DNA of 39,094 nt from an uncultured Candidatus Saccharibacteria bacterium (GTDB lineage Bacteria > Patescibacteriota > Minisyncoccia > Phycocordibacterales > UBA5272): assembly GCA_964654175.1 (NCBI GenBank), contig CAZZGJ010000002.1:1-39094 (forward strand). The letters are read 5' to 3'. Positions 6,016 through 33,349 of this stretch are shown in pieces. The first letter of the stretch is position 1; the number at the start of each line of letters is the position of its first letter. The translations under genes were made by a program, and so were the position numbers. The notes beneath the pieces were generated by a model. It was not told where the DNA came from and ran no database searches. It saw only the letters and a list, made by a program, of their open reading frames with translations.

Positions 6016-7545
6016 ATGTTCAAAGAGATCACACACGGAAGTGAAGCACGAGCCAAAATCAAAGCTGGAATAGATAAAGCAGCCAATGCTGTAGCGCCAA
6101 CACTTGGAGCTGTAGGAATGAGCGCAATGATTGAGTATCCAGGACTTGATCCTATTCATGCTGATGACGGCGTTACTATTCTTAAAAACATAGAGCTTGA
6201 AGATAAACATGAAAACATGGGTGTCCAGACGCTACGAAAAGCTGCTATTCGTACTTCTGAGGAAGGCGGTGATGGGACAGCAACGACTACCATTCTTACC
6301 CAGGCTCTTGTGGGTGAGGCATTTAAGGAAATCGAAGTCGACTCCTCAAAAATACGAGAGGTTCGTGAAAGACTTGAACAAGGATTGGTTGAAGTATTGG
6401 CAGAACTCGCAGAACTAAAGCGTGACGTTACAGAAGACGATATTGAACGCATTGCTACTATTTCTTCACTTGATCCAGAAGTGGCTAAACTCATTGCAGA
6501 AGTCATTAAGGAAGTAGGAGTTAGCGGTGTAGTGACTGTAGAGCGTGGCGCACAACTTGGATACAAGAAGGAAGTGGTAAAAGGCGCTCGTTTCGATAGT
6601 GGGCTTATTTCGCCATTCTTTATCAACGACCATGAGAACGTCCAGACCGTATTGGAAGATGCGTTTATTGTTCTAGTTGACCGTAAAATCAGCATGAACG
6701 AGCAAATCATCCCACTACTTAATTCAATTGGCACAGGACAAGACATTCTCTTTATCGCTACAGACGTTGAATCAGTCGCATTGGGAACTCTAGCGCATAA
6801 CGCTGCTAACGGTATTGCAGACATTGCATGTGTCCGAAACCCACTAAATGCAAGCGCTGGACGAGATTTTCTCTTTGATATGGCTGCTCTAACAGGCGCT
6901 ACCGTTATCTCTGAGGAAATGGGCATGAAGCTAGATCAAGCTGATGTAAAGCTATGTGGACGGGCTGAGAAGGTTATCGTTACCAAAGACACCACAACTA
7001 TCATTGGTGGAGTAGCTGGAGAAACGCTAGAAGCCCGTGTAAAGGACATTGAGCGCCAAATTAGTGAAACTACCAGTGACTACCAGAAAATGATGCTCAA
7101 AGACCGTTTAGCACAGCTTACGGGGGGTATAGGAGTCATCCGAGTGGGTGCTTACACTGATACTGAGTTCAATGCTAAGAAGTACAAGTTCCAGAATGCT
7201 ATTAACGCTACTCAGGCAGCTTTACAAGAGGGTATTCTTCCAGGTGGAGGCGCTGCACTAATGTCTGTTACCGTCAAAGAAAAGATGTTTAAGAAGGCAA
7301 TCCGAGCGCCATTCTTCCAAATGGCTAAGAATGCAGGCATGGATATAGAGTTTGAAGCAAATCAGACATATGCAGCAGGCTATGGAACCAACTTCAAGAC
7401 TAAGGAAGAAGGCGTAAATATGTTTGAGCAAGGCATTATCGATCCTTTCAAAGTGACTCGATTGGCACTAGAGAGCGCTACAGCCATTGCTATGAGCCTT
7501 GTAGGAACTGAAACTGTTATTACCGTTAAAAAAACAGATGAGTAA
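6016..7545 (+). CDS. groEL: chaperonin GroEL-like (Cpn60), 509 aa
   Basis: Group I chaperonin hallmarks: ARAKIKAGIDKAANAV, GDGTATTTILTQALV (GDGTTT ATP-binding motif), VGAYTDTE, LPGGGAAL, IIDPFKVTRLALESA. It has no C-terminal GGM tail. Confidence 0.92.
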   Translation: MFKEITHGSEARAKIKAGIDKAANAVAPTLGAVGMSAMIEYPGLDPIHADDGVTILKNIELEDKHENMGVQTLRKAAIRTSEEGGDGTATTTILTQALVGEAFKEIEVDSSKIREVRERLEQGLVEVLAELAELKRDVTEDDIERIATISSLDPEVAKLIAEVIKEVGVSGVVTVERGAQLGYKKEVVKGARFDSGLISPFFINDHENVQTVLEDAFIVLVDRKISMNEQIIPLLNSIGTGQDILFIATDVESVALGTLAHNAANGIADIACVRNPLNASAGRDFLFDMAALTGATVISEEMGMKLDQADVKLCGRAEKVIVTKDTTTIIGGVAGETLEARVKDIERQISETTSDYQKMMLKDRLAQLTGGIGVIRVGAYTDTEFNAKKYKFQNAINATQAALQEGILPGGGAALMSVTVKEKMFKKAIRAPFFQMAKNAGMDIEFEANQTYAAGYGTNFKTKEEGVNMFEQGIIDPFKVTRLALESATAIAMSLVGTETVITVKKTDE

Positions 7546-21717: not shown

Positions 21718-22698
21718 ATGCTTACTTACACCACAGCACTATCTACCTACCAAAACTGGACAGATAATTCTAGTGCAAATCAAACAAACGGCGCACAGTT
21801 TCTCAATGATTCAGTGCGTACAATCTGTAACTTGCAAGGCGGAAAACTACGCTTTTTGGAAGCTACTAAAGACATGGAAACTGTAGCAGGACAAGAAGCC
21901 TACCAAATACCTGCAAAGTTCCGAAAACTAATAGATTTATACATCTACAGTGGCGCAGGGACGGACTCAGACACCATTTACTCTCCTGAAATGGTCTTTG
22001 ATCCTACTAAGTGGAAGTACATTAAGCAGGCACGATATGGCTCATCTTCAACACCGTACTTCACATACGTAGAAAACCAAAAGTTCTACATCAATCCAGT
22101 TCCTTCTGTATCTGGAAACAAAATCACATTACGTGGTCGTATCAATGTGCCTGATCTTGGCATTGCCGATTACACTACAGGAACAATTGTTTCAATTGCT
22201 AATGGTGGTACTGCTTTGGTAGGTTCTGGTACTACATGGACTGCAGACATGGTGGGTCGTTACATCAATATCCCACGAACTACTGCTGCAGGTGGTGGCG
22301 ATGGTTTGTGGTACGAAATTGGAGGCTACACCAGCGCCACTGCACTGACACTTCTAAAACCATACGAAGGAACCAGCATTGCTGCTGGCACTGCTACATA
22401 CACTATTGGACAAGTGCCACCGATACCAGAAGCGTATCAGATGGCAATGGTTTACCGAGCGTGTGCTTTGTATTGGGAAGATAAAAGTGAAGGAGAAAAA
22501 GCAAAACGCTTCTGGTTACGTTACGATGGAGGTAACGAAGCAGGTTATAATAATGACTATGGCGGTCTGATAAGTCAAATGCTCGCAAATGAAGGGGAAA
22601 CGGAAGAAGGAGCATACATTCCACCATTTGGAAGCACATTAAATACACCGCAAGCACCGTATTACTTCCCTTATGAGCAAGCTAGTGGATTAACATAA
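21718..22698 (+). CDS. virion structural protein (326 aa)
   Basis: Track ORF in the structural block. Confidence 0.6.
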   Translation: MLTYTTALSTYQNWTDNSSANQTNGAQFLNDSVRTICNLQGGKLRFLEATKDMETVAGQEAYQIPAKFRKLIDLYIYSGAGTDSDTIYSPEMVFDPTKWKYIKQARYGSSSTPYFTYVENQKFYINPVPSVSGNKITLRGRINVPDLGIADYTTGTIVSIANGGTALVGSGTTWTADMVGRYINIPRTTAAGGGDGLWYEIGGYTSATALTLLKPYEGTSIAAGTATYTIGQVPPIPEAYQMAMVYRACALYWEDKSEGEKAKRFWLRYDGGNEAGYNNDYGGLISQMLANEGETEEGAYIPPFGSTLNTPQAPYYFPYEQASGLT

Positions 22699-22703
22699 TT
22701 ATC

Positions 22704-24107
22704 ATGAAACCTACACCTAAACAAACATACATCAGCAATGTAGCAACATCACCAGGACTCACTAACCTGAGAAATTCTGCACAGAAAAAGCCAGTTGTAT
22801 TTGGATTGCCTACTTCTGGTAAAGTTCCCGCACCTACATTGCCAACAGGTACTGCAAACTCTACTAGCGCTTATCCAAAAGGAGTAAATTCACCGAATCC
22901 AACGGCTGGAAACATTACCCCATCCTCTCCTGGAGCTACAGGAACCATGCAGGGACCAATTAAGCCTGCTACTGCTACTACCAATCGAACAGGGACCACA
23001 AGCAGTAGTCTGCCACCTGCAGGACAGGAATTTGCTAGTAAACTAGCTGGAATTAAGACAGGTCTTACTGATGTGCAAGATCGTCTAAATACATACACTA
23101 AAGAAAATACTGGAGCGCCTGAAAAGAAAGAATCAGAGTATTTGAAGTACTTGCGTACAATGTTTAATCCAGAAGAAGCAAAACGAGCGCAGGAGAACGT
23201 AAATAACCTCAATAAAATGACTGCTGATGAAATTAAGCGTAACCGTGATGAACAAGACCGTATTCAGAAAAACGAAGCTGGCATGGTAGAACGTGGTCAA
23301 ACCTTCCTATCTGCTAGTTCTGGCAGAGCATCAGCAAAAGCATTGGCTGATCTTGCTATTGCTAAAGGTTACTCAACTGACATTCTTACTCAATTCACTG
23401 ATGCTGGTAAATCGATTTACGAAGCAGAAGAAGCTATGCGTAAAGAAGCAGAATCACCGCTTACACTGGAAGAAGCAACAAAGCTTGGACTTCCATTTGG
23501 AACCACGATGGCTGAGGCTCGTAAGGCAGGTAAGATTCCTAGTAGTGGCGGAGAGACCAATGAAGCTACTGTATTTGCATACGCTGATTTGGTGAACAGT
23601 GGCGGTATGAGTATGGAAAACGTACCAGAGGAATACCGTGGACAGGTAGCGCAAGCAGTTGCTCTCGGAGGCGGAAAGAAGCCTGTTATCTCAGACTACC
23701 AACAGGAGCGCATCACTCGTAACCTCAACAGTATCAGTGACCTTGAAACACAGGTAAATAAGTGGACTACGGGTCCAGGAAGCCTGCTCAGTATGATCCC
23801 TGGCACTGCTGCACGAGACTTCAAAGCAGACGTTGATACACTTGCAGCTAACATTGCTTTTGGAGAACTCACCGCTATGCGTGAGGCTTCTAAGACAGGT
23901 GGCGCACTTGGAGCAGTATCTGAAAAAGAACTTCAATTGCTTGAATCTGCTCTTGGTTCACTAGATCGAGCGCAAAGTCCAACTCAGTTCAAAGAAAGTC
24001 TTGCAGAAATCAAAGCAAGTATTAACCGATGGCAAGATGCCGTTGCACAATACGGAGGTGGAACTATGGGAGGAGACACAGAAGGAGACTCATTATTCAA
24101 CTGGTAA
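22704..24107 (+). CDS. internal virion / ejection protein candidate (467 aa)
   Basis: Disordered P/T/S/G-rich N-terminus followed by a long helical region. Lies directly upstream of the transglycosylase-bearing protein. Confidence 0.5.
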   Translation: MKPTPKQTYISNVATSPGLTNLRNSAQKKPVVFGLPTSGKVPAPTLPTGTANSTSAYPKGVNSPNPTAGNITPSSPGATGTMQGPIKPATATTNRTGTTSSSLPPAGQEFASKLAGIKTGLTDVQDRLNTYTKENTGAPEKKESEYLKYLRTMFNPEEAKRAQENVNNLNKMTADEIKRNRDEQDRIQKNEAGMVERGQTFLSASSGRASAKALADLAIAKGYSTDILTQFTDAGKSIYEAEEAMRKEAESPLTLEEATKLGLPFGTTMAEARKAGKIPSSGGETNEATVFAYADLVNSGGMSMENVPEEYRGQVAQAVALGGGKKPVISDYQQERITRNLNSISDLETQVNKWTTGPGSLLSMIPGTAARDFKADVDTLAANIAFGELTAMREASKTGGALGAVSEKELQLLESALGSLDRAQSPTQFKESLAEIKASINRWQDAVAQYGGGTMGGDTEGDSLFNW

Positions 24108-24119
24108 CTAAAAAACAGT

Positions 24120-26990
24120 ATGCCACCAACAGAAAACTCATTGGATCCACAAGTAGTGGCTATGGCTAAAGCCATACGGCAAGCAGAAAGCGGTAATCGT
24201 GCTGTTTTACCGCAAGAGGGCGCAGGTGTTGGTGGAGCATCTCGTTACCAATACACTCATGACACATGGAAAGGTGTCGCACAAAAGTATCTTGGAAATC
24301 CTAATGCTGAGTTAAATTTAGAAAATGAAAACAAGGCTTCTTATTTGAGAATTAAAGAATGGAAAGATAAAGGCTTCAACGTAGGACAGATTGCTTCCAT
24401 GTGGAACGCTGGCGAAGGCAGACCAAATGCGTACCGTGAAAACTGGAGAGGGGTAAATAAGCATGGTGTTGTATATGACACACCAGCTTATGCAGCTAAA
24501 GTTGCTCGTGCCTACCAACAATTCAAGAGTGAAGCCATGCCAACCGTACAGGCAGCTACCGAAACACCAGCGCCAGTTGAGGAACAAAAGCCTTTTTCAT
24601 TGACACAAGTAGCTAAAGAAGTAGTTTCTCCAGTAACAACCATGCTGGCACGACCATTTCAAGCAATTCAATCTGCTGCACAGCTATTTAGATCTAACCG
24701 TGAAAATCCAGACTTGGAAGCTAACGCTAAAAAATACAGTGACGAAGCTTACAAGCTATCGTTACAGCTACGTGATCCACAGCTAACACCAGAACAAAGA
24801 ATTAGTCTGACAGGAGAAATCCAAAGGAATCAACAATTAGCTGAATACTACGGTAACAGACTATCAAGTAATGCTAATTACAAGCCTTTTTCTACTGAAA
24901 CACTGGTAAAACCAGCGCCAGAAAACATGGCAGACGTTAAAAAAGATGTAGGACGGGGAATTCAGACCGTTGCTTTTGGTCTTGGTCCAGTTTCTGGAGG
25001 CGCAGCCTTTGGAACAGGTATGTCACTAGAAGATGGCAATGATTTACTTAGCTGGGATACCGCAGCCTACACTGCAGGTGGTTTAGTGCTAGGTAAGGCA
25101 GCCGATATAGTCGGAAAACCGCTTCTAAATGCTGCTGGTAAGGTAGTAGGAGTTATTACTCCACAAATGCTTAAAAACGTAGCTGCAGGAGGCGCAAAAG
25201 CCATGCAGACATTCATGGAGACTAACAAACTGCTTCCAAATTCTATAAGCAGACCACTCAATAAGGGGGCTGCTGCTCTTGAAGTTGGCGCTAATGCACC
25301 ATTTAAGGCTGCTGCTGCACCTTTCAGGCAAGTAGATGAAAAAGTTATTGCTAGACGAGAACAGGCATTGAAGGAATTGGAAGAAAAATACGCTCAATTA
25401 CGTGATAATGCAGCACGAAATCCAGAAGCTACTGCAGGCACACGGGGACGAGTAGCACGAAGTAATGTTCTTACAGAAGATAACATGGTCAATGAAGACG
25501 GAGTTATCATTGGCGCTAAAGAAGCAGCTAAAACCTACCGAAAAGAAACAATTGGAGAGGGCGAAAGCTTAGTTCGACAGTTGCTTACAAAAGAAGGTGT
25601 TGGAGTAGATATTGGTGTTGTAGAAAAAGAACTTCAAAAAGTATTGAAAGAATCATTTAGTGGTCGTGAACTCATTTCTGCACTAAATGCTATGAAGCGA
25701 GAAATTGCAGGATTGCGTCTCAAAAATCCAAACGGACGCATCATGCTTACTGATTTGCATGATGCTAAAGTTCAGCGTCAACCAGGCAGCAAAGCCTACG
25801 ATAACTCAGAAACTAAAGCTGTAGACAAGCAAATTGCACGAGCGCACAAGCAAGTCATTGAAAACAACAGTGGCGAAAAGGTACGTGAAATTAACGCTGA
25901 AATTGGCAAATTCTTGGGTGACGCAGAATACATTGAAAGCTTGCAAGGAAAGCGTATTGGAAACGGCAAATTAGGACGTACAGTGTCGCAAGTAGCTGGC
26001 GCTGTGGCAGGAGCTGCAGCAGGTGGAGCGCTTGGAGGGCTTCCAGGAGTGGCTGTTGGATCATATGTGGGTGGATCTGTTTCACGTAAGCTCTCAGGGC
26101 GTGGATTGCGCAATGCGCTTGGTAAACCAACCAAGGTAGCACAGACTAAGAGTGCTGTATTTGAAGCTGGCAGGGAGCGCTTAAACCGTAAAGACTTGGC
26201 ACTACCGCCTGGACCAGCTAAAGGAACTGCTAAGAACCCAATTGTTACTCCAATTAAGGACAAAGGCACTGGTCCTGTTAGCGTTAAAGCTTTGAAGGGT
26301 GAGCCTGTACGAAATAAAAAAACAGGTCGCTTTGAACGTACCTATCTCAGTAGTACAAATGACAAAGAAACCAATTTAGCACTGGAAAAAATCAAAGTTG
26401 CAAAAGCAATTGATACAAAGCTATTAAAAGCAGACAAAGCCAAAGAATATATTGATGAAGCTGCTGATAAAATTGCTAAGAAGTATGGCGATAGCGTAGT
26501 AGTAGCAAAGGCACCAATTAAAAGTCGGGAGCGAGCGATTGAGAAAACTATCAAAGAAAACGGTGGAAATGCTGACAAAATTAAAGATTTGGCACGAAAC
26601 ACCATCATGCCAAAGGATAAAAAAGTGTACCAAAAAGTACTTGATGACATGGACGCTAGAAAAGACCTTGTTACACGTAAAGACCAACATCCAGAGGATT
26701 ACATGGGGTATGAAGGCATTATCTACCATGTAGAAACACCAGGTGGGCTTATTTCAGAAACACAAGTGGTCACTCCTAAAATGATTTACGGCAAGATGCC
26801 AGTAAATGAAGCAAAGACTTTATTGGGTGAAGACCTTTTCAACCAAATTAAAAAGGAATCAGGAGTAGAACCAGAGCTTGGACACAAGTACTACGAACAA
26901 TTCCGAAAGCTCACTATTAAAGAAAAGGAAGGAAAAGTAGGACAAGATCTCACTGAAAAATCCATTGAGTATTACAACAAACTACGTTAA
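24120..26990 (+). CDS. virion protein (956 aa): N-terminal lytic transglycosylase, Gly-zipper membrane segments, C-terminal RelA/SpoT-type synthetase-like domain
   Basis: N-terminus: AIRQAESGN...YQYTHDTW...MWNAGEG (SLT-like). Middle: GAVAGAAAGGALGGLPGVAVGSYVGGSV. C-terminus (about 26511 onward): APIKSRERAIEK, IKDLARNTIM, GYEGIIYHV, ISETQVVTPKM, HKYYEQFR, which match the RSH synthetase motif series. Confidence 0.8.
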   Translation: MPPTENSLDPQVVAMAKAIRQAESGNRAVLPQEGAGVGGASRYQYTHDTWKGVAQKYLGNPNAELNLENENKASYLRIKEWKDKGFNVGQIASMWNAGEGRPNAYRENWRGVNKHGVVYDTPAYAAKVARAYQQFKSEAMPTVQAATETPAPVEEQKPFSLTQVAKEVVSPVTTMLARPFQAIQSAAQLFRSNRENPDLEANAKKYSDEAYKLSLQLRDPQLTPEQRISLTGEIQRNQQLAEYYGNRLSSNANYKPFSTETLVKPAPENMADVKKDVGRGIQTVAFGLGPVSGGAAFGTGMSLEDGNDLLSWDTAAYTAGGLVLGKAADIVGKPLLNAAGKVVGVITPQMLKNVAAGGAKAMQTFMETNKLLPNSISRPLNKGAAALEVGANAPFKAAAAPFRQVDEKVIARREQALKELEEKYAQLRDNAARNPEATAGTRGRVARSNVLTEDNMVNEDGVIIGAKEAAKTYRKETIGEGESLVRQLLTKEGVGVDIGVVEKELQKVLKESFSGRELISALNAMKREIAGLRLKNPNGRIMLTDLHDAKVQRQPGSKAYDNSETKAVDKQIARAHKQVIENNSGEKVREINAEIGKFLGDAEYIESLQGKRIGNGKLGRTVSQVAGAVAGAAAGGALGGLPGVAVGSYVGGSVSRKLSGRGLRNALGKPTKVAQTKSAVFEAGRERLNRKDLALPPGPAKGTAKNPIVTPIKDKGTGPVSVKALKGEPVRNKKTGRFERTYLSSTNDKETNLALEKIKVAKAIDTKLLKADKAKEYIDEAADKIAKKYGDSVVVAKAPIKSRERAIEKTIKENGGNADKIKDLARNTIMPKDKKVYQKVLDDMDARKDLVTRKDQHPEDYMGYEGIIYHVETPGGLISETQVVTPKMIYGKMPVNEAKTLLGEDLFNQIKKESGVEPELGHKYYEQFRKLTIKEKEGKVGQDLTEKSIEYYNKLR

Positions 26991-26999
26991 TATCCGTAT

Positions 27000-27173
27000 A
27001 TGAAATACTATGAATCCACACTCCATGAAGTAAAAGTCAGAACAGACGCTGACGCTAACGAAGCGTTTATCAAAGCTGATAAAAAAGAAAGAAAAGTACC
27101 TGTTACTAACAAAGTGGTAAACGATGCAATTTTAGAGGGGAACACGATCTCAGAAGCTGAATACGCTAAGTAG
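27000..27173 (+). CDS. hypothetical protein (57 aa)
   Basis: Below the track cutoff. MKYYESTLHEVKVRTDADANEAF...AEYAK. Preferred over the antisense track ORF 27008..27190. Its stop abuts the -35 box at 27174. Confidence 0.45.
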   Translation: MKYYESTLHEVKVRTDADANEAFIKADKKERKVPVTNKVVNDAILEGNTISEAEYAK

Positions 27174-27202
27174 TTGACAGTATGTACCAATAGGTATATA
27201 CT
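27174..27202 (+). promoter_or_regulatory. sigma70-type promoter with a palindrome in the spacer
   Basis: TTGACA-17 nt-TATACT. The spacer contains GTACC-aata-GGTAT. The -10 box ends 6 nt before the ATG at 27209, giving leaderless geometry. Confidence 0.6.
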
Positions 27203-27208
27203 GGCACT

Positions 27209-27781
27209 ATGTTAAGTAACGTTGTACACAAAGCAATCATTTTTGCTACCAAAGCTCACGAAGGACAGTTTCGCAAAGGAACTGATGTTCCCTATATCGT
27301 GCATCCTATGGCAGTAAGTTTGCTGGCGTACTCGTATACCAAAGATACAGATCTCGCAGTCGCTGGCTTACTCCACGACACAGCAGAAGATACTGCCGTC
27401 ACTATTCCCGAGATTCACGCTCTTTTTGGCGAAAGGGTGGCTATGTTAGTTGATGCTGTTACTGAGGAAGATCCAGCAGACACCTGGAAGGAACGTAAAA
27501 AGAAAGCGCTGGCTCGTGTAGATCGCTACAGCTCAGATGAATTAATCCTTAAAGGCTCAGATGTCATGGCAAACTGTCGAGACATTCTCAAAGATTACAA
27601 AGAGCATGGGGAAAACCTGTGGACACGTTTTAATCAGTCGGGCAGGGGAAATCTAGTCGATCACTACGTCATTATGCTCAAAACCCTTAAAAATAAGGCT
27701 ATTTACAGCACTGCACCATTCGTATTTATCCGTGATTTAGACGAAACTTTAGCTGAAATGCAGGACGTTTTTGATGTGTAA
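27209..27781 (+). CDS. HD-domain (p)ppGpp hydrolase, small alarmone hydrolase (SpoT/Mesh1-like), 190 aa
   Basis: AIIFATKAHEGQFRKGTDVPYIVHPMAV...AGLLHDTAEDT...FGERVAMLVDAVTE is the canonical RSH hydrolase HD-motif series. Confidence 0.85.
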   Translation: MLSNVVHKAIIFATKAHEGQFRKGTDVPYIVHPMAVSLLAYSYTKDTDLAVAGLLHDTAEDTAVTIPEIHALFGERVAMLVDAVTEEDPADTWKERKKKALARVDRYSSDELILKGSDVMANCRDILKDYKEHGENLWTRFNQSGRGNLVDHYVIMLKTLKNKAIYSTAPFVFIRDLDETLAEMQDVFDV

Positions 27782-27786
27782 AAAGC

Positions 27787-27815
27787 TTGACATTATATAC
27801 CGATAGGTATATACT
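27787..27815 (+). promoter_or_regulatory. sigma70-type promoter with a palindrome in the spacer
   Basis: TTGACA-17 nt-TATACT, with a perfect ATATACC-gata-GGTATAT at 27795..27812. Confidence 0.6.
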
Positions 27816-27819
27816 AAGT

Positions 27820-28425
27820 ATGAAGTTAGCAGATAACCAAATACTCACTATGTCACACACATCAACAATCACCACACAGCGCATGCTCCGTATTCCATCG
27901 GACATGACTCAACTATTCAATGAGGATGCTATCGAGGTCTACACCAAAACAGTAGACGGCAAGATGGTCGCTATGGGCTTCGCAGGGAAGCGAACCAAGC
28001 CAGACTTTTACTACCGTTTCTCCACTGTCGAGCGCATGTACGAATACATCAACAACTGGCGCACCAACATTGAGTCCCACAACACCTATGTAAAAGAGCA
28101 GAAAGAAAAGCGTCTCCAAGACACCACTCTCAAAGTAAACGACATCCTAGAGGGTACATGGGGATACGAACAAACAAACGTCACGTTCTATCAAGTATTA
28201 AAAGTGGTCGGCAAGCGCATGGTAGAGATCCAAGAAATCGGAGCTTCACTCGACTGGAACGGCGGTCCGAGTGCTTACTCAACTCCAGTCCCTAACTCAT
28301 TCAAGGGCAAGCCAGAACGCAAGATGGTTTCAAACGGTCACTACATCAGTATCAACAGTTATCTCTCAGTCACACCGTGGAATGGAAAGCCTGTCAGTAT
28401 TACTGGTCCAGGATGGGGACATTAA
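27820..28425 (+). CDS. hypothetical protein (about 201 aa)
   Basis: Track ORF 27787..28425 begins on the TTG of the -35 box. Trimmed to the ATG at 27820; the ATG at 27850 is an alternative. Confidence 0.65.
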   Translation: MKLADNQILTMSHTSTITTQRMLRIPSDMTQLFNEDAIEVYTKTVDGKMVAMGFAGKRTKPDFYYRFSTVERMYEYINNWRTNIESHNTYVKEQKEKRLQDTTLKVNDILEGTWGYEQTNVTFYQVLKVVGKRMVEIQEIGASLDWNGGPSAYSTPVPNSFKGKPERKMVSNGHYISINSYLSVTPWNGKPVSITGPGWGH

Positions 28426-28826
28426 AAACCTTTTCTCCATCCAACCAAATTGCACTTATTAGAGCAGTATTTGGACTTTGGAGCCTTGATAGAAACACCA
28501 CAATTAGCACAGACTCTATCCATGACTGTGCTTTTTTGATTTAGTTCGTTCTCAATATCTCGATGGTGTTTAGAACAAACCCATGTAACATCGAGGGGTT
28601 TTAAGTAGTCTCCATGGTGAGCTTCTATCCTACCTTTACAATCAGATCCATAATTTTTACAAGCTGACGGTACTAATTTACCTTGCTTAACAGCATACGC
28701 CACCAAATTTCTAGCAGTTACTTTTTGTTTATCCCGATTTCGTTTATAGATTTTAAAATATTCATTTCTATTACGGGAGCGCTTCTTAGCTTTGTCTCCC
28801 CATGTATCAGCGTATGGCATATACAA
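28422..28826 (-). CDS. HNH endonuclease
   Basis: CKNYGSDCKGRIEAHHGDYLKPLDVTWVCSKHHRDIE (HNH core) plus CANCG...CSNKC. The track start is TTG at 28826. The ATG at 28820 lies 6 nt after a TATAAT box (28832..28827). Confidence 0.75.
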   Translation of the reverse strand: MYMPYADTWGDKAKKRSRNRNEYFKIYKRNRDKQKVTARNLVAYAVKQGKLVPSACKNYGSDCKGRIEAHHGDYLKPLDVTWVCSKHHRDIENELNQKSTVMDRVCANCGVSIKAPKSKYCSNKCNLVGWRKGF

Positions 28827-32654: not shown

Positions 32655-32977
32655 GCGAGAGCTTTTTTGGCATACGCACCAGAGTCATATTCGACTCCAT
32701 GCTTATTTGTGCCTTTCACCTCAACTGGCCGTCCTGAGTTCCACATGAGGAAGATCTCTTTCTCTGTGTATCCCTGCACTAACCATTTTTGTACCATCAT
32801 GGTAGCGATGTACATTTCGTTGGTCTTGCTAATGGGAGCTACGTAGCCAATAGTCTCTTTGGACCACATTGCATACGTAGCAGGAAGGAACTGGAGACAG
32901 CTCTTTAGTTCACCACTGCCACCTTGCAAGTGACAAACAAACTCACCATTGGTTTCTGCTCCCCATATAGCCTGCAC
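32636..32977 (-). CDS. lytic transglycosylase (SLT-like) domain protein
   Basis: AETNG...LQFLPATYAMW...MWNSGRP...GTNKHGVEYDSGAYAKKALAY is paralogous to the N-terminus of 24120..26990. GTG start; the catalytic Glu is only 8 residues in. Confidence 0.7.
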   Translation of the reverse strand: MQAIWGAETNGEFVCHLQGGSGELKSCLQFLPATYAMWSKETIGYVAPISKTNEMYIATMMVQKWLVQGYTEKEIFLMWNSGRPVEVKGTNKHGVEYDSGAYAKKALAYLSRS

Positions 32978-33270
32978 TATTCTACTGGCGTGGGAGCTTG
33001 CGAAAAAGACAGGCGAACTTGTCTAATTTCTTCTAATCGAGCTTCACTTTTCTTGATGTCTTCTTTAATAGTTGTTTCCTCAGCATCGAGGATCTTCTTT
33101 GCTTCATCCAATTGCTTTTGGGCTTCTGATACGTTGTCAGTCGGCTGTACTTCTACAACGTCTGGTGTGGGTTGTGACACGTACTCAGTAGTAGAGCTAA
33201 TAGTAGAGAGGTAATAGATACCTGCTACGGCTATCACTATAGCAATGATTGTATAGAATGTTTTATTCAT
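32977..33270 (-). CDS. N-terminal membrane anchor plus coiled-coil protein (97 aa)
   Basis: FYTIIAIVIAVAGIYYL TM segment, then a charged helix. Its TAG overlaps the GTG of the SLT ORF by 1 nt. Confidence 0.65.
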   Translation of the reverse strand: MNKTFYTIIAIVIAVAGIYYLSTISSTTEYVSQPTPDVVEVQPTDNVSEAQKQLDEAKKILDAEETTIKEDIKKSEARLEEIRQVRLSFSQAPTPVE

Positions 33271-33321: not shown

Positions 33322-33349
33322 AGTATATACCACATAGTATATATTGCAA
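33322..33349 (-). promoter_or_regulatory. minus-strand sigma70-type promoter with a palindrome in the spacer
   Basis: On the minus strand: TTGCAA-16 nt-TATACT. The spacer carries TATACC-acat-AGTATA (33326..33341 in + coordinates). Confidence 0.5.

Follow-up and report, generated by a model that had tools for sequence, protein, structure and literature searches.

Among described systems, the closest to the locus examined here is a phage toxin module. In a Bacteroides caccae prophage, Ahmad et al. (2023) found a MuF-fused (p)ppApp synthetase, Apk2, followed by a Tis1-like gene and then by the gene of the hydrolase Aph1 (PMC10083569). Both proteins encoded downstream of Apk2 protect experimentally, the blocker BcTis1 only partially, and full protection needs Aph1, which turns over (p)ppApp at about 480 per min and whose (p)ppApp specificity was ascribed to a signature of six residues (D24, R96, D116, R119, K133 and Y134; PMC10083569). 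Paulet et al. (2025) added three more prophages, in which a hydrolase could be exchanged from toxin to toxin and the protein blockers were specific to their partners, and MuF toxins were described as specific to temperate phages (PMC12226406). A small alarmone hydrolase (SAH) can also be the type IV antitoxin of a toxSAS, and all toxSAS tested are neutralised by PbcSpo of phage PVP-SE1 and PaSpo of phage SSU5, two SAHs that stand alone (Jimmy et al., 2020; PMC7229694). Tested members of the Tas1 family make (p)ppApp. The travel of phage (p)ppApp toxins in the particle, their injection and their use to the phage were left open (PMC10083569, discussion). The DNA analysed here (contig CAZZGJ010000002.1, 39,094 bases; hereafter the window) is as long as the longest contig recorded for its 956-aa protein and therefore probably represents all, or nearly all, of the ~39-kb genome of an uncultivated phage; it carries, in this order, a 956-aa fusion protein with a Tas1-like toxin domain, a 57-aa Tis1-like open reading frame (ORF) and a single-domain HD hydrolase gene (Table 1). 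An earlier sequence-only reading of the locus had taken the generic toxSAS/SAH pair as its precedent; the phage module Apk2 - Tis1-like/IapK - Aph1 is closer.

The HD gene is assigned, from its sequence and predicted fold, to the stand-alone SAHs of the RelA/SpoT homologue (RSH) type, RelH branch, and its product is predicted to be a Mn2+/Mg2+-dependent 3'-pyrophosphohydrolase. The protein probably acts as a product-level antidote of the Tas1-like toxin, complementing the stoichiometric Tis1-like blocker. That the gene encodes a stand-alone alarmone hydrolase, as first proposed from the letters of the window, was borne out. The ORF holds the motif strings HEGQFRKGTDVPYIVHPMAV, LLHDTAEDT and FGERVAMLVDAVTE, and its 190-aa product matched HD_4 in Pfam (PF13328; 56.9 bits, cut-off 27.2, expect value (E) 2.7e-15), with HD_4/HD matches only and neither synthetase nor regulatory (TGS/ACT) domains; in NCBIfam, TIGR00691 covered its N-terminal part only. 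The best sequence matches in the PDB were RelH of Corynebacterium glutamicum (7qoc, E 7e-23) and RelH of Leptospira levettii (7qoe, E 9e-21), both at 29-31% identity, followed by Lmo0812 (E 3e-18) and then by long Rel enzymes and MESH1; Aph1 (7smg) was matched over the N-terminal ~80 residues only (E 8e-7; phmmer). The catalytic residues are intact. In a 36-sequence alignment H32, D57, E60, D61, D118 and N122 were invariant and R22, K23 and H56 nearly so, a set that includes the metal-binding H32, H56-D57 and D118, the catalytic E60-D61 and the ribose-contacting N122, and that matches the RelH motifs. The AlphaFold2 model (predicted local distance difference test, pLDDT, 92.3) is one all-helical domain of ten helices, with Foldseek template-modelling (TM) scores of 0.86 against RelH of C. 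glutamicum, 0.80 against RelH of L. levettii, 0.74 against MESH1, 0.73 against PaSAH and 0.57 against Aph1. Aligned with 7qoc_A, the model gave TM 0.86/0.85 across 194 columns, including extra C-terminal helices that Aph1 lacks.

The gene upstream had been called synthetase-bearing, and residues ~757-956 of its product matched Tas1 (6ox6_A, E 1.1e-29, Tas1 residues 242-434 aligned; phmmer), the sole PDB match of the domain at E<=10. Blocks kept in comparison with Tas1 were KAPIKSRERA, KIKDLARNTI, GYxG, ExQV..P.MIY.K and GHKYYE, and 41 columns were invariant in six phage homologues. The syn3/syn4 residues differ from those of both Tas1 and Apk2 (GII vs GVN; ETQVV vs EIQVN), so that the product of the toxin is not readable from sequence. 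Modification of tRNA by the synthetase, entertained at first, found no support, and a reading of the domain as a tRNA-pyrophosphorylating toxSAS was rejected, Tas1 being its only match. A Pfam scan of the 956-aa protein gave no match at E<=0.01, and NCBIfam searches with toxin domain, 57-aa protein and carrier brought nothing further.

The 956-aa protein ends at 26990, 218 nt before the HD start codon; the gene order and the single 57-aa ORF in the gap were given correctly in the sequence-only reading, the spacing of 219 nt was not. Nor is the 57-aa ORF a mere spacer. Its product scored 26.3 bits against PF24154 (Tis1_ImmP; E 8.2e-6), 0.7 short of the cut-off of 27, and PF24154 was matched by 5/6 of its homologues. 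A profile of these homologues had Tis1 (6ox6_B) as its top PDB match (E 0.0018), and the family and Tis1 have in common the C-terminal motif N..nDA..G..I..eeYe; only the family profile reached Tis1, the single 57-aa sequence returning nothing from the PDB at E<=10 (phmmer). The ATG of the gene lies 9 nt past the toxin stop codon, with no promoter element of its own. Each Tas1-like domain of the lineage is followed by a Tis1-like gene, as is that of a more distant contig (L011). The score is borderline and the context consistent, and by sequence the 57-aa ORF is identified as the cognate Tis1/IapK-like immunity protein; the HD protein would therefore be a second antidote and not the only one. 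Purifying selection acts on all three parts: the ratio of nonsynonymous to synonymous substitution (dN/dS) is ~0.045 in the toxin domain, between 0.05 and 0.12 in the 57-aa gene and between 0.10 and 0.18 in the HD gene.

The survey of relatives suggested at the outset covered eleven contigs of the lineage (L001-L010 and L093) beside the window. Tas1-like domain, Tis1-like gene and HD gene were present together in six contigs (the window, L001, L002/L003, L004, L093 and the P0003/P0122 pair) and jointly absent from six syntenic relatives. P0122, an HD protein, and P0003, a fusion, are probably encoded on one contig, because the longest contigs of both are 20,694 bases. L001, L002/L003, L004 and L093 keep the gene order of the window, their Tis1-like proteins having 57/58 aa and their HD proteins 189-193 aa. 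L005-L010 lack all three parts (6/6) and retain the adaptor, the ejection-type gene 5' of the fusion and the carrier part (60-72% identical); the C-terminal domains of their carriers are Zeta or Zeta-like, ParB_N, of no known type, or absent. The homologue of the 27820..28425 gene follows the carrier region in the two of these in which it was traceable (L007 and L010), and in L011 it stands directly after the Tis1-like gene. In rough neighbour-joining trees of carrier and adaptor (no bootstrap) the cassette-bearing L004 clustered with cassette-less genomes, so that the cassette does not simply follow backbone ancestry, and by the same trees it sits on at least two backbone branches. The best explanation is that Tas1-like domain, Tis1-like gene and HD gene form a movable cassette with the HD gene as third member. 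Close relatives of the HD protein (60-91% identity) numbered only five in a search of 5.8 billion proteins; four of the five were traced to contigs that also bear the toxin fusion and the Tis1-like gene, the fifth being P0122.

A scan of IMG/VR with the single toxin sequence returned one locus and an alignment-based scan 80 loci, ~60 of which are one redundant human-gut phage group. At these 80 Tas1-like loci all adjacent HD genes have Asp at the Aph1 D24 position (GQIDK; GQYDR in L030), and the RelH-type GQ(F/V)RKGT was found in the present lineage only. The redundant group (L012 and L033-L092; mostly human-gut contigs of 22-222 kb) comprises ~60 near-identical loci, which combine a free-standing, carrier-free Tas1-like synthetase (~204-243 aa) with a Tis1-like protein (~88 aa) and an Aph1-type hydrolase (~126-157 aa; GQIDK).

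The HD gene has, as was claimed for it, its own TTGACA-17-TATACT promoter-like element, ending six bases (GGCACT) before the ATG. The element is conserved: with the -10 box read as TATA(C/A)T, it precedes the HD gene in 5/5 related contigs inspected (L001, L002/L003, L004 and L093), and in these four relatives the -35 hexamer takes in the TGA with which the Tis1-like gene ends. Two matches to TTGACA-17-TATACT with at most one mismatch occur in the window vs 0.32 expected, and 3/100 shuffles gave two, a count that is weak evidence by itself. An imperfect operator-like palindrome, TGTACCAATAGGTATA, lies inside the element (27183..27198), and the palindrome TATACC-N4-GGTATA occurs 9 times in the window vs 0.73 expected, with 0/100 shuffles reaching 9. 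Other copies of the element lie at 27787, 29478 and 36927 (+) and at 33331 (-) and recur in L001-L010; in a scan of the window no copy fell within structural genes, the element being confined to non-structural ones. Among genes behind this promoter type the HD gene comes first; the toxin and Tis1-like genes, which close the structural gene block, are without it. The whole element spans ~45 nt, comprising TTGAC(A/T), the palindrome TATATACC-N3-GGTATATA, a -10 box overlapping the right arm and then the block AAGTATGAAGTT, and is kept across phages with proteins only 60-70% identical, which suggests a common repressor or regulator.

An ATG stands 4-6 nt past each copy of the element. Leaderless mRNAs as a general rule were considered on this account and rejected, since the ATG after most copies belongs to AAGTATGAAGTT, a conserved part of the element; in L011 a stop codon comes directly after this ATG, which in L004 does not share the reading frame of the gene. 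In the HD copies the ATG after the element is the sole possible start codon. A recognisable Shine-Dalgarno sequence was found at 0/43 gene starts inspected (e.g. 12461, 19665, 24120 and 27000), the upstream sequence being A/T-rich. The promoter-like elements, despite the missing Shine-Dalgarno sequences, fit the sigma-70 and not the Bacteroidota-type consensus.

The delivery part of the proposal concerns the carrier. The N-terminal ~750 aa of the fusion are 60-80% identical among close relatives (dN/dS 0.09-0.14), and carrier homologues at 56-80% identity match PF06737 (Transglycosylase-like) and PF01464 (SLT), in their N-terminal part. Within the transglycosylase-like domain Glu23 of AESGN is nearly invariant (alignment A4), and this domain was the best-predicted part of the AlphaFold2 model of the fusion (block pLDDT 74-89). 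No MuF or PAAR domain was found in the fusion of the window (Pfam, PHROGs). The 750-aa carrier had no match by tblastn in 50,697 phage records and none in PHROGs. The C-terminus of the family is Tas1-like in P0002-P0005, ParB_N in P0007-9, Zeta toxin in P0016-22 (weakly in P0010) and ART-PolyVal in P0051 and others, and the C-terminal domain is absent in P0006; by these sequences the carrier is a polymorphic family with C-termini exchanged between related phages. Phage particle proteins with exchangeable C-terminal effector domains are a general concept, and internal virion proteins may have an N-terminal lytic transglycosylase, as does T7 gp16. The carrier gene is the last large gene in the structural block. 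It follows the gene of a 467-aa protein, whose C-terminal part matched phrog_2534 ('released from the phage upon host infection'; E 1.8e-9) and which also matched related PHROGs of unknown function. From its gene position, this neighbour, the transglycosylase and a hydrophobic segment, the fusion is a probable ejected internal virion protein. The segment, a Gly/Ala-rich stretch VAGAVAGAAAGGALGGLPGVAVGSYVGG at residues ~625-650 (window 25992..26069), is the only part of the fusion with a Kyte-Doolittle mean >1.2; a second Gly-rich stretch lies at residues ~285-300, and from their composition the two could be membrane-inserting segments of an ejection protein.

Each alternative C-terminus in L005-L010 is trailed by different small ORFs (50-80 aa) or by a 456-aa gene, a variation that resembles, by analogy, the toxin/immunity cassette swapping of polymorphic toxin systems.

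In the mechanism proposed, the toxin domain would be a graft on the C-terminus of the ~750-aa transglycosylase carrier at the end of the virion gene block. The 57-aa protein would block its active site stoichiometrically, and the hydrolase would remove the product of the toxin and restore ATP/ADP, as a type-IV-like antidote. Toxin fusion and Tis1-like protein would be made together late in infection, which would keep the producing cell safe during packaging of the fusion. On infecting a new cell the phage would eject the fusion together with its DNA, and the C-terminal domain of the fusion would turn ATP/ADP of that host into (p)ppApp; the HD gene, transcribed from the incoming genome, would limit or reverse the nucleotide drain and could also clear (p)ppGpp. 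A split between a late blocker and an early hydrolase is suggested because, of the cassette genes, only the HD gene has the promoter element of non-structural type, and a pulse followed by reversal, as first imagined, would be compatible with this layout. In its fullest form the proposal is tentative: a phage with no detectable lysogeny module might arm an ejected, wall-cutting virion protein with a (p)ppApp-synthetase warhead that drains ATP, in a self-limiting 'stun' that the first-transcribed RelH-type HD enzyme would end by giving the nucleotides back, the blocker serving late in the producer and the enzyme early in the receiver, and the carrier family might elsewhere deliver a Zeta kinase, a ParB-like nuclease or an ADP-ribosyltransferase.

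Several observations weigh against the antidote role or against its timing. The HD protein fails the Aph1 signature: with Aph1 positions mapped through the conserved GQxxK and D...N motifs (D24, D116 and R119 compared), D24 is replaced by R22, D116 by R124 and R119 by L127, and since R22 stands in place of D24 the protein retains the Arg of (p)ppGpp hydrolases. For RelH of C. glutamicum, its closest characterised relative, the assays covered only pGpp, ppGpp and pppGpp (PMC9293644, PMC5954133). The closest bacterial homologue of the HD protein (44% identity), an orphan SAH, is encoded on a chromosome among housekeeping genes with no synthetase nearby. In L011/L013 the Tas1-like domain (49% identical) belongs to another protein, of 820 aa, with the Tis1-like gene present and the HD gene absent, and the hydrolase is thus dispensable for the toxin. 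Because the three parts are contiguous, their joint presence and absence partly reflects linkage rather than function. No + strand terminator was found after the late genes and ahead of the HD gene; late read-through could therefore express the latter too and blur the early/late split. The full 956-aa protein was modelled with low confidence (AlphaFold2, pLDDT 60.4, predicted TM score 0.34), and Foldseek found no PDB match of this model at E<=0.001.

Identity of the HD protein as an Aph1 was considered separately and rejected, the protein having neither the signature nor the fold; with 190 aa, ten helices and TM 0.57 it does not fit the compact eight-helix Aph1 protomer (~150 aa).

The HD protein could, as a rather unlikely alternative, serve host takeover or counter-defence independently of the toxin, hydrolysing host (p)ppGpp and averting the stringent response or undoing toxSAS such as CapRel and FaRel; its adjacency to the toxin would then be an accident at the late/non-structural boundary, where accessory genes accumulate. 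A RelH-type protein with the Arg-Lys pair typical of (p)ppGpp hydrolases and no Aph1 signature would suit such a role, as would a promoter element separate from the toxin and Tis1-like gene and the L011 genome, which keeps these two without the HD gene. Stand-alone SAH homologues occur in 311 cultured-phage records vs a Tas1-like domain in one, and those of PVP-SE1 and SSU5 neutralise every toxSAS tested (PMC7229694). An accident of position does not sit well, however, with an HD gene that in this lineage never occurs without the Tas1-like domain and is absent in 6/6 syntenic genomes with other C-termini, with the tracing of four of its five close relatives to toxin-fusion contigs (the fifth, P0122, being tied to one by its longest contig of the same 20,694 bases), or with a cassette on at least two backbone branches. 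Counter-defence and the antidote role are not mutually exclusive.

Somewhat further down, the HD protein might be a late back-up immunity in the producing cell that mops up (p)ppApp leaked during assembly, as proposed for Aph1/BcTis1, with no role in newly infected cells and with a toxin that is inert or used in competition between phages or bacteria. In B. caccae the partial protection by BcTis1 and the requirement for Aph1 point this way (PMC10083569), and here the Tis1-like stop codon inside or beside the -35 box makes for operon-like tight packing, with late read-through possible where no + strand terminator precedes the HD gene. A dedicated, conserved element at the HD start, of the type of the non-structural genes, would nevertheless be needless in a gene that is purely co-transcribed, and the role appears improbable; it is also a sub-case of the product-level antidote, with the same biochemistry and other timing. 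Action on a non-alarmone substrate (NADPH, as for MESH1, or tRNA 3'-pyrophosphate), with an indirect link to Tas1, is very improbable, for although MESH1 structures with NADPH and PAPS were among the structural matches (TM 0.74) and SAHs are described as metabolically promiscuous (PMC9765508), the best sequence and fold matches are bacterial RelH alarmone hydrolases and the adjacent synthetase is of the nucleotide-making Tas1 type.

Table 1. Features of the window around the toxin, blocker and hydrolase genes (positions in the 39,094-base window).
Feature	Position	Strand	Details
SU10-type adaptor gene	21718..22698	+	PF24175, E 1e-15
467-aa virion-module protein, directly 5' of the fusion	22704..24107	+	phrog_2534; syntenic in all relatives
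956-aa fusion: ~750-aa conserved carrier and C-terminal toxin domain	24120..26990	+	290 homologues
Lytic-transglycosylase-like N-terminal domain of the fusion (residues ~1-140)	24120..24540	+	Homologues match PF06737, PF01464
Tas1/Apk-like putative (p)ppApp-synthetase toxin domain (residues 757-956)	26388..26987	+	Tas1 match
57-aa Tis1/IapK-like immunity protein, predicted to block the toxin active site	27000..27173	+	PF24154
Sigma-70-type promoter-like element TTGACA-17-TATACT	27174..27202	+	-35 box 27174-27179, -10 box 27197-27202
HD gene, 190-aa RelH-type SAH	27209..27781	+	ATG start; HD_4 and RelH matches
Second, near-perfect copy of the element, putative driver of the 27820..28425 gene	27787..27815	+	

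The phage context was read from gene order. The window encodes a GroEL-like protein, the large terminase subunit, the major head protein and the SU10-type adaptor, then the 467-aa protein and the toxin fusion; the genes beyond the HD gene are non-structural, a nuclease and a replisome organiser among them. No integrase was found among 30 ORFs of the window scanned against PHROGs. No cultured phage exceeded 25% identity with the large terminase subunit, and a DNA search with the region from the toxin to the next gene gave no match in the 50,697 cultured-phage records.

Directly 5' of the large terminase gene stands a 509-aa GroEL-like chaperonin (6016..7545, +), aligned over nearly its full length to phrog_5725 (E 4e-113); such a gene is unusual at a genome size of ~39 kb. 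Among the non-structural genes lies a 134-aa HNH-type endonuclease-like gene (28422..28826, -; phrog_2340, E 1e-17), and relatives carry NUMOD4/HNH_3 genes at other positions; these HNH-type genes are probably mobile homing endonucleases. On the minus strand, the relatives L001 (13777..14106), L002, L006, L008 and L009 carry a further small SLT-like gene, whose product shares ~33% identity with residues 14-132 of the carrier transglycosylase, and a 97-aa ORF of the window (~32977..33270, -) is its presumed counterpart, judged by position and size. This small gene may be an endolysin or a duplicate of the carrier N-terminus.

The question of particle-borne (p)ppApp toxins is more approachable in these phages. 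The protein that bears the toxin has the hallmarks of a virion component that is ejected and cuts peptidoglycan, related phages exchange the warhead and keep the carrier, and one of the two antidotes stands under a separate promoter type common to non-structural genes. If the timing model is true, this would be a clear case of a virus-delivered enzyme that collapses host nucleotide pools and of reversal by the virus itself. The sequences further suggest that an ordinary hydrolase scaffold of the (p)ppGpp type, and not a dedicated Aph1, can be recruited as toxin immunity, and recruitment of the RelH type bears on the sequence-based prediction of alarmone hydrolase specificity.

Compared with the "bicistronic immunity" module of Apk2 (PMC10083569, PMC12226406), the present locus has the same order of toxin, Tis1-like gene and HD-domain hydrolase, and a Tas1-like domain C-terminal on a phage particle protein, here a putative one. 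As in the Apk module, the blocker is always present and the hydrolase variable, L011 being without it. The carrier differs, Apk2 being fused to MuF and Apk1 to PAAR, and the toxin here to a ~750-aa protein that bears a transglycosylase and is encoded where the tail/ejection genes end. The hydrolase differs too, being of the RelH type and not an Aph1, and it stands behind its own conserved promoter/operator-like element. Unlike the MuF toxins of temperate phages, the locus lies in a genome with no integrase among the 30 ORFs scanned, and unlike MuF polymorphic toxins (PMC12226406) its carrier family, a putative particle protein, has no match in PHROGs or cultured phages.

The toxin domain and the 57-aa profile match the Tas1 (Apk1)-Tis1 pair of the Pseudomonas aeruginosa PA14 type VI secretion system (6ox6). 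Each of the two toxins is joined to part of a machine, contractile or ejecting, through which it enters another cell, presumptively so in the phage; Tas1 is delivered by a PAAR domain, the present toxin presumably by a phage protein, and the tas1-tis1 pair has no hydrolase gene as drawn in Fig. 1A of PMC10083569. The HD protein shares catalytic residues and additional C-terminal helices with RelH of C. glutamicum and L. levettii (7QOC/7QOD, 7QOE), which are chromosomal enzymes of (pp)pGpp metabolism, whereas the enzyme here is encoded by a phage and linked with a toxin of the (p)ppApp type. As in the FaRel-ATfaRel toxSAS (PMC7229694), a hydrolase is predicted to neutralise a toxic RSH synthetase by destroying its product; the toxins there are free-standing cytoplasmic proteins of other small alarmone synthetase subfamilies, with SAHs of other subfamilies, and the toxin here is a domain of a virion-module protein with an additional protein-type inhibitor. 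With polymorphic or 'polyvalent' particle toxins the family has in common a conserved delivery part, exchangeable C-termini (Tas1-like, Zeta, ParB_N and ART-PolyVal) and different small genes downstream of each C-terminal variant. The pairing of toxin and hydrolase is not new in itself, because Apk2 - Tis1-like/IapK - Aph1 is published; novel in comparison with that module are the delivery carrier, the hydrolase family and the separate regulation of the hydrolase.

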